Assembly (NCBI GenBank): GCA_048939995.1
Contig: JBHLOY010000009.1
Span: forward strand, 1-64,000
Source: Promethearchaeota archaeon
GTDB taxonomy: Archaea > Asgardarchaeota > Lokiarchaeia > Sigyniarchaeales > SOKP01
DNA length: 64,000 nucleotides
Direction: 5' to 3'
Shown: piece by piece, positions 15,904-21,003 of the stretch
How positions within the stretch are numbered: position 1 is the stretch's first letter
How the letters are laid out: each line of letters begins with the position of its first letter
Notes under the pieces: model-generated
Seen by the model: the letters and a program-made list of their open reading frames with translations, nothing else
Databases searched by the model: none
Told to the model about the DNA's origin: nothing
Position numbers and translations under genes: made by a program

Positions 15904-17124
15904 ATGGTAGATAATAGTATGTTAAAACAATACTTTTTTCAATTAGAGGCAACTCTTAAAAAGAAGATAGACTCCAAATTGACTGCTCGTAGGAAATTCG
16001 TTTACGAAATAGCACGTATTGGTTCTCGTATTTTCGATGATAATTGGTCAATTGGGTGGACAACGGTATTTGTTCCATATGAAATTTTAAATTCTATGAA
16101 TGTGTCAGGAATGTTTGTAGAATTTTTTGGAGCAATGCTTTCTGGCGCGGGGTTATCTCAAAAATTTTTTGAAATAGCCGAAAGTAAAGGATATTCAACA
16201 GATAGTTGCTCATATCACAGAACTATAATCGGAGCTGCAATGGATGGTCTACTTCCTGAGCCGGATGTTCTTATAGGAGCGAGTATCCCATGTAATGGAG
16301 GAGTTAAAGCATTAAAGCGTATAGGTGAAATCTTTAATAAAGAGGTTTTTATTCTTAATATTCCTATTGAGGTAACCTCGAAATCAGTTGATTATTTAGC
16401 AGAAGAATATAACCAAATGATTGATTATATTGAAGAAAATACGGGACGTAAGTTAGATTATCAGAAGCTTAAAAAAGCAATAGAGTATAATAATCAAGCA
16501 AGAGATTATCTTATAGAAGTAAACAATCTCTGCAAAAATGTTCCTAGTCCTTCAAATTCTAACGATTTAAAAAATTTCATTATGTTTGTTCTACTTTTAG
16601 GAACTAAGGAAGGAATCGAAGTAGCAAAACTTTATCGGGATGAATTTCAAGGTAGAATTAATAACAATTTAATTGGGTTATCAAAAGAAAAATATCGATT
16701 ACTCTGGATTCAGAACAGAATCCAGTTTAAGACAGACCTTCTAGATATACTGGAAGAAAAATATGGAGCTAATGTTGTAATTGATGAATTGAATCATATT
16801 TGGTGGGATCCGCTAGATGAAAGTGACCCTTTGCGGAGTATTGCCTATCGTATGATCACTCATCCTCTGGTTGGACCTGTGGAGCGTCGTCTTAAAGTAT
16901 TGACACAGTTGGCAAAGGAGTTCAAAGTAAATGGGGCAATAAACCCTGCTCATTGGGGTTGTCGTCAATCAGCAGGAGCAAGGGCGTTATTTAAGGAGGC
17001 ATTGCAAAAGGTAGGTGTTCCACTGATACATCTGGATGTTGATTGTGTTGATGAGAGAAATTATTCACATGGTCAAATATTAACCCGCCTTGAAGCCTTT
17101 ATGGAAATGTTAACAGCAGATTGA
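15904..17124 (+). CDS. 2-hydroxyacyl-CoA dehydratase subunit (HGD-D family)
   Basis: DSCSYH, PCNG, HWGCRQ and DCVD..TRLEAF motifs; 2 nt from the partner gene. Confidence 0.9.
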   Translation: MVDNSMLKQYFFQLEATLKKKIDSKLTARRKFVYEIARIGSRIFDDNWSIGWTTVFVPYEILNSMNVSGMFVEFFGAMLSGAGLSQKFFEIAESKGYSTDSCSYHRTIIGAAMDGLLPEPDVLIGASIPCNGGVKALKRIGEIFNKEVFILNIPIEVTSKSVDYLAEEYNQMIDYIEENTGRKLDYQKLKKAIEYNNQARDYLIEVNNLCKNVPSPSNSNDLKNFIMFVLLLGTKEGIEVAKLYRDEFQGRINNNLIGLSKEKYRLLWIQNRIQFKTDLLDILEEKYGANVVIDELNHIWWDPLDESDPLRSIAYRMITHPLVGPVERRLKVLTQLAKEFKVNGAINPAHWGCRQSAGARALFKEALQKVGVPLIHLDVDCVDERNYSHGQILTRLEAFMEMLTAD

Positions 17125-17145
17125 AGATTGTAACAACTACTTAAT

Positions 17146-17544
17146 TCATTCAGTAAGCCTTGGTTCTGACACTATTTGAACTCTATTCCCTTCTGAATCT
17201 GTCATATTGAAGTAAGAGACCATATTTGGAATATCAGTTATATCAGTAGTTGCAATACCTTTATCTTCTAAATATTTCTTGGTTTGCTCTAGATTTTTTA
17301 CTGAAATAGTAAATGTACCTGAATCCGAGGTGACTTTATCATCTTCAGCTACAGTATTTAATCCTAGTCGCGGAGTCCCACCTGGTAGATCAAATTCACA
17401 CCATCCAACCTCAGGAGACATATACCAAGAGATATTAAAATTGAATGTATCCTCGTAAAACTTTTTAGCTCTTTCAATATCAGCTACTTTAATCTGAAAG
17501 TACATTCTTTCAAATAAAATAGGATTTTTCTTTTTTTTAGCCAT
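17146..17544 (-). CDS. VOC/glyoxalase family protein
   Basis: VADIERAKKFY and DSEGN motifs. Confidence 0.9.
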   Translation of the reverse strand: MAKKKKNPILFERMYFQIKVADIERAKKFYEDTFNFNISWYMSPEVGWCEFDLPGGTPRLGLNTVAEDDKVTSDSGTFTISVKNLEQTKKYLEDKGIATTDITDIPNMVSYFNMTDSEGNRVQIVSEPRLTE

Positions 17545-17660
17545 AACTTATCTTAAATTTCATTATTTTATAAGGATTCGCAAAAAAATTAAGGGTTAAG
17601 GTAATTCTACTTTTATTTTATTAAATTAAAACTTATAAGGCGCTTTTAATCTATTTCTAT

Positions 17661-18398
17661 ATGGATAACAATTTAGATGCTTTTGGAGATAATTTTCAAC
17701 AAAAATCAAAATATATTCGCAATAAGTTGCCCCAACATCGATTAGATTGGTCAAATAAACCAGAGACTTATAAAACGTATCCAGCTGCGATAAAAACTGT
17801 AAAATTGCCTAAACCGGAATTTGACAAAAATATAAGCTTCTGGGATGTTATTTTAAATCGGAAGTCTGTTCGAAAGTTTTCGAATAATCCTATTACACCC
17901 TCTGAAATTAGTCTTCTATTATTTGGAATGTCAGGTCTAACTCGTATTTTTCCCCAATTTGCTTTTAGAACAGTACCTTCAGCAGGAGGTTTATATCCTA
18001 TCGAGACATATCCAGTAATCAATAATGTTGAAGGGATAGAAAGAGGGATTTATCACTATAATATCTCAAAACACAGCCTTGAATTATTGAAGAGAGGGGA
18101 CTTTCGTTCAGATATAGCAAAAGGGTGTTTAGATCAACAAATGGCGTTCAATTCCGCTGTAAATTTTGTATGGACATCTATTATTGAACGCTCTAAATGG
18201 AAATATCTTCAGAGATGTTATCGCTATGTGTATATGGATGCAGGTCATATTGGACAGAACTTTTATTTGGTCGCTGAAGCATTAGGGTTAGGAGCTTGCG
18301 TAATTGGCGCAATTTTTGATGATGAGATTAATAATTCAATTGGAATTGATGGAATTAATGAAACAGCAATCTATGTAGGTGTTCTAGGTAAATATTAA
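17661..18398 (+). CDS. SagB/ThcOx-family nitroreductase
   Basis: RKSVRKF, RTVPSAGGLYP and DAGHIGQN motifs. Confidence 0.92.
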   Translation: MDNNLDAFGDNFQQKSKYIRNKLPQHRLDWSNKPETYKTYPAAIKTVKLPKPEFDKNISFWDVILNRKSVRKFSNNPITPSEISLLLFGMSGLTRIFPQFAFRTVPSAGGLYPIETYPVINNVEGIERGIYHYNISKHSLELLKRGDFRSDIAKGCLDQQMAFNSAVNFVWTSIIERSKWKYLQRCYRYVYMDAGHIGQNFYLVAEALGLGACVIGAIFDDEINNSIGIDGINETAIYVGVLGKY

Positions 18399-18406
18399 AA
18401 AAAAAA

Positions 18407-18781
18407 TTAGATAAAGCTCAAAATCCCTAGAATTAGAGCAATTAGGGCAAATACATAGATAACGCGACTAGTCCAAATATGTGCTTTTCGTAGATTTTTA
18501 TTTTTCAAGTTCCGAGCGACAATACCTACTACTACCGCATACACCAAGAAAATTATCGCAAGTAAGCCCACTATTCCATGTGGGATCGTCAATATGAGTG
18601 TACCTAGAAGAATAATCCCAATTATTGCTAATATGGTTCCACCAATCGCAGTTATCCAATGTAGTAAGAACCACTTTTTCGGTTTATGGAAATTAACGAA
18701 AAATAATGAAAGAGAAAGTAAGATGATGCCTATCAAAATGAAGATAAAATGAGGGAATAGAAATAGATCAACTATTGACAT
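18407..18781 (-). CDS. Stand-alone four-helix cytochrome b561-like protein
   Basis: Four TM helices, each with one His (FPHF, LLHW, IPHG, KAHI), matching the di-heme b561 core. Confidence 0.7.
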   Translation of the reverse strand: MSIVDLFLFPHFIFILIGIILLSLSLFFVNFHKPKKWFLLHWITAIGGTILAIIGIILLGTLILTIPHGIVGLLAIIFLVYAVVVGIVARNLKNKNLRKAHIWTSRVIYVFALIALILGILSFI

Positions 18782-18790
18782 ATTATACTT

Positions 18791-19267
18791 TCACTTTTTT
18801 CTCTTAGATATGAATATGGTAATTAGAATTATTGAAATAGACGTTGGGATTAAGAACCCAATAAAACCTGGGATTATTTCATTGGTTGTGGTGGTACCAG
18901 CTGTAACTGTCAATGACTGCTCACGAAAACCAGAAATACTGCACTCTGCCCTCACAAAGATTATTGCTCCAATGTTAGCAGTTACATTATATATATAAGT
19001 AAACATAGAAGGATTTGGTTGACTAGTGTATACATGAGTATCTACAATGCTTCCATTCACCATTATAATTACTGTTTCTATATAATGAGATGGATCACTG
19101 CCCACATTATGTGTAATTGTTACGCTAAGTTCGTTTGTATTTGTAGAATAAGTTAGGCTCATGTTAGAAGGTGTATGTGCTCTGACAATCGAACCGGCAT
19201 ATATTATGCAAATAAGGGAAAATAAACAGAGACTTAGATATATACTTTTTTTTGACATTCGCATCAA
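18791..19267 (-). CDS. Exported, C-terminally anchored desulfoferrodoxin/SOR-like beta-sandwich protein
   Basis: Signal peptide ..VRA|HTP; H..HYI and AECSISG motifs; Thr linker; IPG + TM + KRKK anchor (Loki-CTERM-like). Confidence 0.65.
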   Translation of the reverse strand: MMRMSKKSIYLSLCLFSLICIIYAGSIVRAHTPSNMSLTYSTNTNELSVTITHNVGSDPSHYIETVIIMVNGSIVDTHVYTSQPNPSMFTYIYNVTANIGAIIFVRAECSISGFREQSLTVTAGTTTTNEIIPGFIGFLIPTSISIILITIFISKRKK

Positions 19268-19435: not shown

Positions 19436-20227
19436 ATGGAGACCTCGATATATTTTTTTACTGGAACAGGTAATTCACTAAAAATAGCTAAACTACTCTC
19501 AGAGGAGTTAGGGAATTGTGAACTTATTCCCATTGCAAAAGTATGGCAAATAGAAAAAGTTAGCTCAATTAGTAGAAATATTGGGTTTGTATTTCCACTT
19601 TATTATTTCGGTTTACCAAAAATTGTTTATGAATTTATAGAAAAATTAATTCCTGATAAATCAGATTATTTTTTTGCAGTTGTGACTAGTGCTGAAGATA
19701 AAAATGAATTACCCTTCCAACAAATAAACAATATTCTCAAATTGAAAGGTAAAAAGCTCAGTTCTGGTTTTACTATTAATATGCCAAATAATTATATTAT
19801 GGGATATGATGTCTCGTCAGAAACACATAAAAAGAAAGTGTTTGATGATATACCTTACCAAATTCAATCCTTTATTGAAATCGTTAAGGAAAAGAATGAA
19901 AACTTAGTTAAGGAGTCCTTTGAGAAAGAAAAAGAAAGAGAGAAAAAGGTTAACAGTTCATTCCATACCGAAGTCAATGAAATGGATAAATCATTTTATA
20001 CTACTGATAATTGTAATAGTTGTGGGATATGTGAAAAGGTATGTCCTGTAAATAATATAAAACTTATTAATGAAAAGCCAAAATGGCATCATAAATGCCA
20101 ACTTTGCTTAGCTTGTATGCATTTTTGCCCAGAAGTAGCAATCCAATTTGGAAGTGATACATTAGAAGCGGGGAGATATCATCATCCTGAAATTTCAATT
20201 CAAGAAATAATTAATCAAAAATTGTAG
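19436..20227 (+). CDS. EFR1-family flavodoxin-ferredoxin fusion
   Basis: FTGTGNSL, FPLY, MPNNY and two 4Fe-4S motifs. Confidence 0.92.
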   Translation: METSIYFFTGTGNSLKIAKLLSEELGNCELIPIAKVWQIEKVSSISRNIGFVFPLYYFGLPKIVYEFIEKLIPDKSDYFFAVVTSAEDKNELPFQQINNILKLKGKKLSSGFTINMPNNYIMGYDVSSETHKKKVFDDIPYQIQSFIEIVKEKNENLVKESFEKEKEREKKVNSSFHTEVNEMDKSFYTTDNCNSCGICEKVCPVNNIKLINEKPKWHHKCQLCLACMHFCPEVAIQFGSDTLEAGRYHHPEISIQEIINQKL

Positions 20228-20295
20228 TAATTTACTTATTCTATTTATAGTTTGAAATCACAATTTATTTATGGTTTTAATTATTTAGATCCATA

Positions 20296-21003
20296 ATGAA
20301 GACAGAAATTGAAAAAGGCGACATAGAGTCGTGCCAATCCACTATTAATCCCAGCGAGTGGAATGGAAGAACAATAGAAATTGATGACGCTGGGACTGGA
20401 GACCTTGTTGGAGATGCTTTTATTGGTTTTCGAGATACGCAAACCGGAAAGGTAATATTTCAATCGGTCCCCGTAGGGCTCTATAACGAGGATAATAAGG
20501 ATGAGGATCGCCCGAAAAAGCGTATATTTAACATAGTAATAAAGACACTTCGATTACTTAATTATAGTGATGAAGATAGGATATTATTATGTAGGGGGAA
20601 TTGTTTTGATCCAGTTAGAGATTACTTTAACGAGAATAAAATATATTACGAGCCCGCAATTATAGAGGGAGCACTGCAAGATGCTGTAGAAGGTCGATAT
20701 GTCCAACACCTTCGAAAACTTGGAGTAACTTCTAATAAATTAACGAAAGAGTCAGGAGCACAACGCTATTTTGTCTTGTTTGATTGGGTTTGCCAAGATT
20801 TTCCAAATCGTGAACGATTTGTTAAGACTGGATTTCCTTCGTGGAAAAAAAAATGGCGAAAGATTGCTATAAAAAGATACAAAAAATACAAGAAAATTAA
20901 GCGCCATAGCACGAAAACGATTATGAAACGGGCAAATGAGATCTATAAGCTTATGTTTGAGAAACCCGATTCTTTAAAGAAATATCCTCTTAAAGTAAAT
21001 TAA
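20296..21003 (+). CDS. Hypothetical protein with RNase HII/HIII-like N-terminal motif
   Basis: IEIDDAGTGDLVG resembles the DEAGRG/DEVGTGD motif; basic C-terminal tail. Confidence 0.55.
   Translation: MKTEIEKGDIESCQSTINPSEWNGRTIEIDDAGTGDLVGDAFIGFRDTQTGKVIFQSVPVGLYNEDNKDEDRPKKRIFNIVIKTLRLLNYSDEDRILLCRGNCFDPVRDYFNENKIYYEPAIIEGALQDAVEGRYVQHLRKLGVTSNKLTKESGAQRYFVLFDWVCQDFPNRERFVKTGFPSWKKKWRKIAIKRYKKYKKIKRHSTKTIMKRANEIYKLMFEKPDSLKKYPLKVN

Follow-up and report, generated by a model that had tools for sequence, protein, structure and literature searches.

Superoxide reductases (SORs), i.e. neelaredoxins and centre II of the desulfoferrodoxins (PF01880), are small Ig-like (immunoglobulin-like) beta-sandwich proteins found in anaerobes. 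The TAT-SOR class of SORGOdb comprises periplasmic SORs with a twin-arginine (Tat) signal in anaerobic bacteria, e.g. Geobacter Gmet_2613 (PMC3116461). In a second group of systems, CYBDOM (DOMON-b561) and Dcytb, the two haems of a cytochrome b561 core pass electrons across the membrane to a beta-sandwich redox domain, or to a substrate, on the extracytoplasmic side. A third group, the His-brace proteins (LPMO, CopC, YcnI, Ang-1/Ang-2), carries His1 on an Ig-like sandwich; among these, the bacterial anglerases Ang-1 and Ang-2 have Ig-like N-terminal-His domains fused to metal permeases, bind copper or nickel, and have been proposed to capture metal (PMC12537917). Here we describe a two-gene locus that touches on all of these systems, found in a 64,000-nucleotide stretch (hereafter the window, meaning the whole stretch analyzed) of contig JBHLOY010000009.1 from a Promethearchaeota archaeon (assembly GCA_048939995.1). 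Its first gene encodes P1, an exported protein with a domain here labeled SORL, and its second gene encodes P2, a minimal cytochrome b561. The pair would work like the b561/CYBDOM relays and resembles both SOR and the His-brace proteins, while failing sequence membership of both. Probably, P1 and P2 form an extracytoplasmic redox-metal module that is fed by b561. Metal binding, the identity of the metal, the direction of electron flow and the substrate are all parts of this scheme that we infer.

The elements of the pair, in window coordinates, are as follows:

18791-19267, minus strand: P1 gene (SORL), 158 aa when read from TTG; open reading frame (ORF) with translation
19178-19267, minus strand: P1 signal peptide, residues 1-30 (...IVRA), with cleavage predicted before His31 from the family-wide -3/-1 rule
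18899-19177, minus strand: mature Ig-like beta-sandwich domain of P1, residues 31-123, carrying the putative metal ligands
19177-19175 (His31), 19111-19109 (His53), 19087-19085 (His61), 19021-19019 (Gln83) and 18943-18941 (Cys109), minus strand: codons of the putative ligands of P1
18794-18898, minus strand: P1 anchor, read from the sequence as a Thr-rich linker (TAGTTTTNE), an IPGF motif, one transmembrane helix and a KRKK tail
18407-18781, minus strand: P2 gene, minimal four-helix cytochrome b561, 124 aa
18751-18749 (His11) and 18580-18578 (His68), minus strand: putative outer haem ligands of P2, near the outer face
18661-18659 (His41) and 18481-18479 (His101), minus strand: putative inner haem ligands of P2, near the cytoplasmic face

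A sequence-only reading of the locus had described two co-oriented genes 9 nt apart, and this arrangement was confirmed on the minus strand: the TGA of P1 occupies 18793-18791 and the ATG of P2 18781-18779, leaving 9 nt between them. P1 probably starts at the ATG at 19258 (155 aa) rather than at the TTG, since close homologues begin with MSKKS. Residues are nevertheless numbered after the 158-aa ORF throughout, and conservation counts refer to 180 family members. That the locus goes beyond chance is indicated by the b561 score of P2 above the Pfam cutoff, the family-wide invariance of the P1 motifs, and the recurrence of the pair both as neighbors and as fusions.

The functional link between SORL and b561 is strongly supported by domain architecture. 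By employing a structure search of the Atlas with P1, we found an archaeal cluster of 196 proteins of about 267 aa, 68% of which carry the b561 domain PF03188. A hidden Markov model (HMM) of P2 orthologues identified a C-terminal b561 in 12 of the top 150 SORL family clusters, and Pfam confirms the domain above cutoff in seven of these 12. The fusions are distributed as follows:

SORL fused directly to b561, 245-267 aa: P0069, P0067, P0126, P0104, P0056, P0110, P0141
SORL-(Ig)n-DOMON-b561: P0057, P0121, P0136, P0132
SORL-b561-PQQ (pyrroloquinoline quinone) glucose/sorbosone dehydrogenase: P0093

The exported domain comes before helix 1 of b561 in each of these fusions, which matches the N-out topology deduced for P2 (see below). 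The four DOMON-containing clusters are, within this very family, instances of the DOMON-b561 fusions that the sequence-only reading had mentioned. As for separate genes, a P2-like b561 was found in 28 out of 400 Asgard genomes, confined to two families, and SORL lies directly upstream of b561 on the same strand in eight Asgard genomes of four genera (G000, G013, G237, G251, G256, G270, G050 and G051). The flanks of these eight paired loci are unrelated each time, and neither a conserved third gene nor a cytoplasmic donor was found at any of them. The b561 domains fall into two lineages, with 36-64% or 18-29% identity to P2, and the SORL domains remain at 35-59% identity, with a mirror-tree correlation of r = 0.17. 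Given the two b561 lineages and this low correlation, SORL appears to have joined b561 more than once, and such repeated independent association strengthens the functional inference. Co-evolution of SORL and b561, being weak at the same r, was discarded.

These architectures also bear on whether the two proteins are linked at all. P1 could have a structural or adhesive role at the surface, with P2 as a membrane redox protein of its own that merely lies downstream, as would suit the fact that both genes are often alone and that Ig-like folds are common in surface proteins. Repeated fusion, with two b561 lineages and in three architectures or more, already makes this unlikely. The pair is furthermore kept in four genera with changing flanks, and the domain has an invariant set of His, His, Cys and Gln at one of its poles. 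We regard the absence of any functional link as very improbable.

P1 has no Pfam, NCBIfam or PDB sequence match, and searches of PDB sequences with P1 and with the family profile returned chance matches to C2 domains only. A profile search against 1.8 billion cluster representatives nevertheless revealed a large family: a limit of E <= 1e-3 yields 1513 clusters (at 50% identity), and one of E <= 1e-10 yields 618. The nearest Atlas clusters are 100% archaeal (Methanobacteriota, Promethearchaeota, Thermoplasmatota), with bacterial clusters (Thermodesulfobacteriota) as structural neighbors; all clusters near P1 are annotated as "hypothetical" and share no common Pfam family. Within the Asgard archaea, the SORL domain occurs in 120 out of 400 genomes and 22 out of 85 genera. 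Judged by the names that close homologues bear, the host itself belongs to the Promethearchaeota/Lokiarchaeota (Lokiarchaeia type), in agreement with the Asgard archaeon of the sequence-only reading. Our literature search found nothing on the SORL family or its pairing with b561 within the library searched.

In sequence order, P1 reads IVRA / H31-T-P ... T-H53-x7-H61-Y-I ... A-E-C109-S-I-S-G. All motifs named in the sequence-only reading are present where it had placed them, the codons of His31 and Cys109 having been read directly. In the family alignment, His53 (178/178), His61 (178/179), Gln83 (179/180) and Cys109 (179/180) are practically without exception, and Gly is found at position 113 in 176/180. 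Position 31 is His in 153 out of 171 members, the remainder having Asn (13), Asp (4) or Thr (1), and Pro follows two residues later, at position 33, in 161/172. As aligned, the invariant core of SORL is thus H53/H61/Q83/C109, while His1, i.e. the His at the predicted mature N-terminus, is a majority feature and not a universal one. The AlphaFold2 (AF2) model of P1 is an eight-strand sandwich with a pLDDT of 79 overall and 88-92 in the core. Going by its strand order, one pole of the sandwich brings together residue 31, the 52-61 and YTSQP loops as well as the C109-G113 turn; the loops of the opposite pole hold no conserved residue at all. A gathering of conserved residues at one pole in the model is the pattern that a single, putative metal site would give.

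Residue 31 is the predicted mature N-terminus across the SORL family, since small residues at -3 and -1 together with a preceding hydrophobic stretch make up a signal-peptidase I signature. Position -3 before the conserved His holds V, A, T, S, G, I or C in 167/167 relatives and position -1 holds A, G or S in 166/167, with -2 being variable. The conserved N-terminal His has a median position of 29, and in 96% of the members it comes after an uncharged stretch of 10 or more residues. The earlier proposal of an exported P1, cleaved just before His31, is thereby supported as a prediction from sequence comparison. At the other end, the C-terminus consists of IIPGF-IGFLIPTSISIILITIFIS-KRKK, with IPG[FY] conserved across the family. 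This tail would serve as a membrane anchor and resembles a PGF-CTERM sorting signal, although membership of the PGF-CTERM/ArtA system is not supported: P1 has no TIGR04126 match, and the genome has no good ArtA, the best match to archaeosortase A (TIGR04125; C17:463282-463623) scoring 28.6 bits against a cutoff of 75. The sole NCBIfam match at the C-terminus of P1 is Heimdall-CTERM, which at 8.4 bits stays below its cutoff of 24. Tails like that of P1 were found in only three ORFs of the genome, the anchor being a possible processed sorting signal. The other two ORFs with IPGY, a helix and a Lys-rich tail are located at C31:33432-34148 and C37:11935-12456 of the same genome (G000).

The SORL domain also occurs in other settings. 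It forms the N-terminal module of very large surface proteins (P0120, P0055 and P0118), e.g. the 1915-aa P0120 from a Thermoplasmatota metagenome-assembled genome, all of which are without b561. One of the three adds an S8 peptidase, beta-helix/NosD-like repeats and cadherin-like domains, and the others add PKD or invasin-like repeats. A clade of SORL paralogues (L048-L056 and L019-L022, e.g. L049:1115-1798 and L019:1474-2004) of 175-260 aa is set apart by a large insertion that separates the HYI strand from the Cys loop, and by a different anchor (G-x-PYYNPH...). The clade is repeatedly flanked by an MFS transporter and a polytopic membrane protein of 440-490 aa. The latter has no Pfam, NCBIfam or PDB match; its nearest Atlas cluster is labeled "cytochrome oxidase subunit I profile" (score 0.90), an unconfirmed lead. 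Longer Asgard SORL ORFs (L087-L096, 212-256 aa) and the insert paralogues L048-L056 were considered as candidate b561 fusions, but none is, their extra length consisting of extracellular segments, anchors or tails.

P2 is a genuine cytochrome b561 core, as judged from its sequence and model. It matches PF03188 at 26.1 bits, above the Pfam gathering cutoff of 23, and in a six-frame scan of the 3.75-Mb genome, where it scores 24 bits, it is the sole such gene; the b561 domains of fused relatives score 28-41 bits. The protein holds five His (H11, H32, H41, H68 and H101). In an alignment of 19 b561 domains, i.e. seven stand-alone Asgard proteins and 12 fused ones, H11, H41, H68 and H101 are invariant, one per helix, and H32 varies. 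P2 had at first been described as having four transmembrane helices with one His each, which holds for the helices and for the conserved His but not for the total number. The AF2 model (pLDDT 93.4) has helices at 10-31, 37-59, 67-92 and 95-123, with H11 and H68 at the outer ends of helices 1 and 3, and H41 and H101 at the inner ends of helices 2 and 4. The modeled His residues thus come in the putative 1+3 / 2+4 pairing that ligates two haems b in b561. Since loops 1-2 (HKPKK) and 3-4 (RNLKNKNLRK) are rich in Lys and Arg, they are taken to be cytoplasmic, with the N-terminus outside. The best Foldseek matches are Arabidopsis b561 (4o6y and 4o7g; TMq 0.74-0.76, root-mean-square deviation, or rmsd, of about 3 A, 21-22% identity), with an E-value of only 0.03, as expected for a short helical protein, followed by NOX transmembrane domains and human Dcytb. 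Two orthologues deviate from this picture: L083:1252-1632 (in G281) has lost the outer pair (H11 to F and H68 to Y) and kept the inner one, and L084 (in G197), broken up by TGA and TAA stops, is a probable pseudogene.

Compared with CYBDOM and eukaryotic b561, P2 has the four-helix core only, not six helices, and is a separate polypeptide, although some relatives of P1 are literally SORL-DOMON-b561. The acceptor would be a non-haem His/Cys domain instead of the haem-binding DOMON, and ascorbate should not be assumed as the cytoplasmic donor of P2.

The fold and motif order of P1 point to the SOR/SoxZ group. Structural comparison by VIA-align (exhaustive) gave SoxZ (2ox5_Z) at Z 10.3, with 93 residues aligned at an rmsd of 2.7 A and about 11% identity, together with the SORs of Giardia (4d7p, Z 8.9) and Nanoarchaeum (6gq8, Z 8.5). 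Foldseek returned neelaredoxins and SoxZ at E-values of approximately 3e-3 to 1e-2, among C2 domains. Out of 84 relatives, 17 have a sub-threshold match to PF01880 (16-20 bits versus a cutoff of 22.2), covering profile positions 7-93 of 98. In a relaxed hhalign comparison of the SORL family with 24 canonical Asgard SORs, AH-x-P is paired with KHVP, H...HYI with H...H-I-WI, and C-x-x-G with C-N-x-H-G. P1 and SOR have in common their occurrence in anaerobes, an Ig-like sandwich as far as the model of P1 goes, and the order of their motifs: strand 1 begins with H-x-P, H-x(5-7)-H-[YI]-I comes next, and last is a Cys with a turn of small residues or Gly at +3. They differ in that P1 is exported, tethered to the membrane and endowed with an extra invariant Gln, and in that its likely donor is a transmembrane b561, whereas that of SOR is rubredoxin. 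TAT-SORs likewise place a SOR-type domain outside the cytoplasmic membrane of anaerobes, but they have a complete SOR active site and a Tat signal, whereas SORL has a Sec-type A-x-A signal that exposes His1, one ligand fewer, a C-terminal anchor and b561 partners. Nor is P1 the housekeeping SOR of its host, since the same genome (G000) encodes a canonical cytoplasmic Dx-SOR of 135 aa on contig 11 (532956-533216; L046:1366-1773), with an N-terminal CxxC...CC followed by EKHVP, HPM...H-I-WIE and CNIHG.

With SoxZ as the best structural match, P1 might not be a metal enzyme at all: its Cys could carry sulfur species in the manner of SoxYZ, or its His and Cys could ligate haem in the manner of DOMON, with b561 supplying the electrons. 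A few relatives do have sub-threshold SoxZ matches in Pfam, and DOMON demonstrates that a beta-sandwich beside b561 can bind haem. However, the carrier Cys of SoxYZ is situated on SoxY, in its C-terminal GGCGG motif, and not on SoxZ, and the invariant residues of SORL coincide in order with the iron ligands of SOR. SoxZ also differs from P1 in having neither the H/H/C/Q constellation nor a membrane anchor, nor any association with b561; no sulfur-metabolism genes were found beside the pair at the paired loci. We consider a sulfur- or haem-carrying P1 improbable.

The likeness to His-brace proteins is of a different kind. P1 shares with them a predicted cleavage that exposes His1 on an Ig-like sandwich, as well as the habit of such domains to be appended to, or encoded beside, membrane proteins. 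Unlike them, it has an invariant Cys and two further invariant His, its His1 can be replaced by Asn, Asp, Thr or Ser in some members, and its partner is a redox protein and not a permease. Membership of the LPMO, CopC, YcnI or anglerase families was not found, as P1 has no Pfam or NCBIfam match and these families were absent among the 84 relatives scanned.

In the mechanism that we propose, P2 would take electrons from a cytoplasmic reductant at its inner haem (His41/His101) and pass them to the outer haem (His11/His68). P1, once exported, would lose its leader to signal peptidase in front of His31, and its C-terminal helix would keep it at the membrane. The sandwich of P1 would carry a mononuclear metal center with a core of His53, His61 and Cys109, with Gln83 nearby. 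In this subfamily, His31, through its amine and/or imidazole, may join the site in place of the SOR His that is absent from the family. Electrons would then move from the outer haem to the tethered center, which, once reduced, would reduce superoxide or a related oxidant at the cell surface. P1 would in this way be the outward-facing counterpart of the cytoplasmic SOR encoded in the same genome. The metal is more likely iron than copper, because the family is found mainly in anaerobes. The reduction of superoxide or another oxidant is favored on account of the ancestry of the ligands and the anaerobic hosts, in which iron is available and copper is not. It is also favored by the precedent of Tat-exported SORs (PMC3116461), and a SOR on the outside needs an electron supply of this sort. 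Even so, SOR-type chemistry at the P1 site is a tentative assignment that falls slightly short of an even chance. Its most specific form, in which the free N-terminus and imidazole of His1 replace the fourth His of [Fe(His)4Cys] and the center is powered via a dedicated four-helix dihaem b561 ("His1-SOR"), is rather doubtful.

Alternatively, P1 may be a non-catalytic relay for the export of electrons, i.e. a cupredoxin- or rubredoxin-like carrier to extracellular acceptors or syntrophic partners. The family does associate with haem relays (b561 and DOMON) and with a PQQ dehydrogenase, and two invariant His together with Cys and Gln resemble the ligand set of stellacyanin-type blue copper proteins, which is a lead only. 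Fold and ligand order, on the other hand, appear to follow SOR and not cupredoxin, and strict anaerobes have little copper at their disposal. Near the eight paired loci no partner acceptor is encoded, and the cytochrome oxidase lead from the insert paralogues was not confirmed by Pfam, NCBIfam or PDB searches. All in all, such a relay seems quite unlikely.

Several observations weigh against a SOR-like, b561-fed P1, and they are given together here. The SOR fold matches sit among many generic FnIII and Ig domains at Z of about 9, with SoxZ first. P1 itself has no match to PF01880 even at E <= 10, and the hhalign comparison, although collinear, is not significant (P = 0.025, probability 1.9%). 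The fourth His of SOR (C-x-x-H) is absent from every SORL member, and the place of the catalytic Glu and Lys of SOR (E-K-H-x-P) is taken by V-R-A, which is predicted to be cleaved off. At the mature position 1, the b561-paired orthologues of one genus, g28 (L069, L070 and L076), have Asn, and distant Asgard members have Thr or Ser. Regarding the partnership, SORL is missing from the vicinity of 17 of the roughly 25 b561 loci that could be evaluated and, at E <= 1e-8, from 14 out of 27 genomes with b561, among them three whole genera, and most SORL genes have no P2-like b561 in their genome (SORL in 120/400, b561 in 28/400). Five orthologues from the same genus as P1 (L005-L009, e.g. L006:2105-2944) are situated 90-240 nt upstream of a ZIP permease (PF02535, E = 3e-47) and not of b561.

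Taken on their parts, these observations leave a remote likeness to SOR. What stands of the likeness first suggested is a collinear relation (Z 8.5-8.9 and 17/84 sub-threshold PF01880 matches), in which homology is sub-threshold and statistically weak as far as sequence goes. We read the SORL domain as an offshoot of the SOR/SoxZ fold group that has diverged and is not a SOR family member as defined. It would have kept three of the four His positions of SOR plus the Cys, and lost the last His and the Glu-Lys pair. The replacement of the fourth His by Ser, which had been proposed for P1, agrees with the loss of that His throughout the family (His in 0/180 at position 112), the position being occupied by G, S, A, T or V. 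Because some members have Asn, Asp, Thr or Ser at position 1, the His1 imidazole would be dispensable in them. The N-terminal His, which the sequence-only reading had put forward as a source of the missing ligand, is not essential to the b561-coupled form, paired orthologues in a sister genus having Asn there. SORL and b561 are modular and not obligate partners. Their perfect co-occurrence among 61 related genomes, where seven out of seven b561 genomes had SORL, failed in the set of 400 genomes (13/27). Conservation of the gene pair elsewhere holds in part only, in that it is found in eight Asgard genomes of four genera, but the partner is present at only eight of the approximately 25 evaluable b561 loci.

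The ZIP neighborhood brings in the main rival to oxidant reduction, namely the capture and reduction of metal for uptake. Here, P1 would fish for Fe3+, Cu2+ or Ni/Zn, b561 would reduce the metal, and a permease such as ZIP would import it. Besides the five Lokiarchaeial orthologues directly upstream of a ZIP transporter, several points speak in favor of this. The anglerases (Ang-1, Ang-2) provide a precedent (PMC12537917), and Dcytb, whose human form is among the fold matches of P2, is a ferric/cupric reductase of the b561 family. P0121 carries the domain on the end of a stalk of four Ig units, in the manner of a fishing rod, and many SORL genes lack any b561. The ZIP adjacency is, however, a single lineage-specific event among close orthologues of one genus, and no transporter was found beside the pair in eight out of eight paired loci. 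With its four or five invariant residues of ligand type, among them a Cys thiolate, the site looks more like that of a permanent cofactor than one for hand-over, and the DOMON-b561 and PQQ dehydrogenase fusions point to a terminal redox center. Iron is furthermore already Fe(II) in the sulfidic, anoxic habitats of these archaea, so reductive uptake is less needed. We hold metal capture to be unlikely, with a better claim than the other rivals to oxidant reduction.

The surroundings of the pair in the window include the following features:

18397-18406, minus strand: run of ten T directly after the stop codon of P2, resembling an archaeal oligo-T terminator
17661-18398, plus strand: nitroreductase, converging on P2
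19436-20227, plus strand: flavodoxin plus 4Fe-4S protein, on the other flank of the pair

Since both flanking genes are on the opposite strand, P1 and P2 are a self-contained two-gene unit that would form one transcription unit, and the run of T looks like the archaeal oligo-T terminator that would mark its end. Also in the neighborhood are a gene similar to the D-component of 2-hydroxyglutaryl-CoA dehydratase (15904-17124, plus strand), a glyoxalase-fold gene (17146-17544, minus strand) and an ORF of 235 aa without any Pfam match (20296-21003, plus strand). None of the window neighbors of the pair (15904-18398 and 19436-21003) was found to be kept beside SORL-b561 in other genomes.

Lastly, SORL constitutes a large, mainly archaeal family that is currently without a name and without a Pfam or NCBIfam model. 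Its invariant His, His, Cys and Gln, together with the conserved N-terminus made by cleavage, point to a putative metal center derived from the SOR scaffold, and the repeated fusions to b561, DOMON-b561 and PQQ dehydrogenase indicate how such a center would be fed electrons. If the b561-fed module is true, it would be a prokaryotic counterpart of the eukaryotic b561/CYBDOM electron relays. It would also answer how strict anaerobes without a periplasm protect or service redox chemistry at their surface, which bears on the oxygen tolerance of the Asgard archaea. Should the more doubtful His1-SOR hold as well, it would represent a new class of extracytoplasmic non-haem metal enzyme and define a family of more than 1500 clusters, providing an outward defense against superoxide or oxygen for strictly anaerobic archaea, including the Asgard relatives of eukaryotes.

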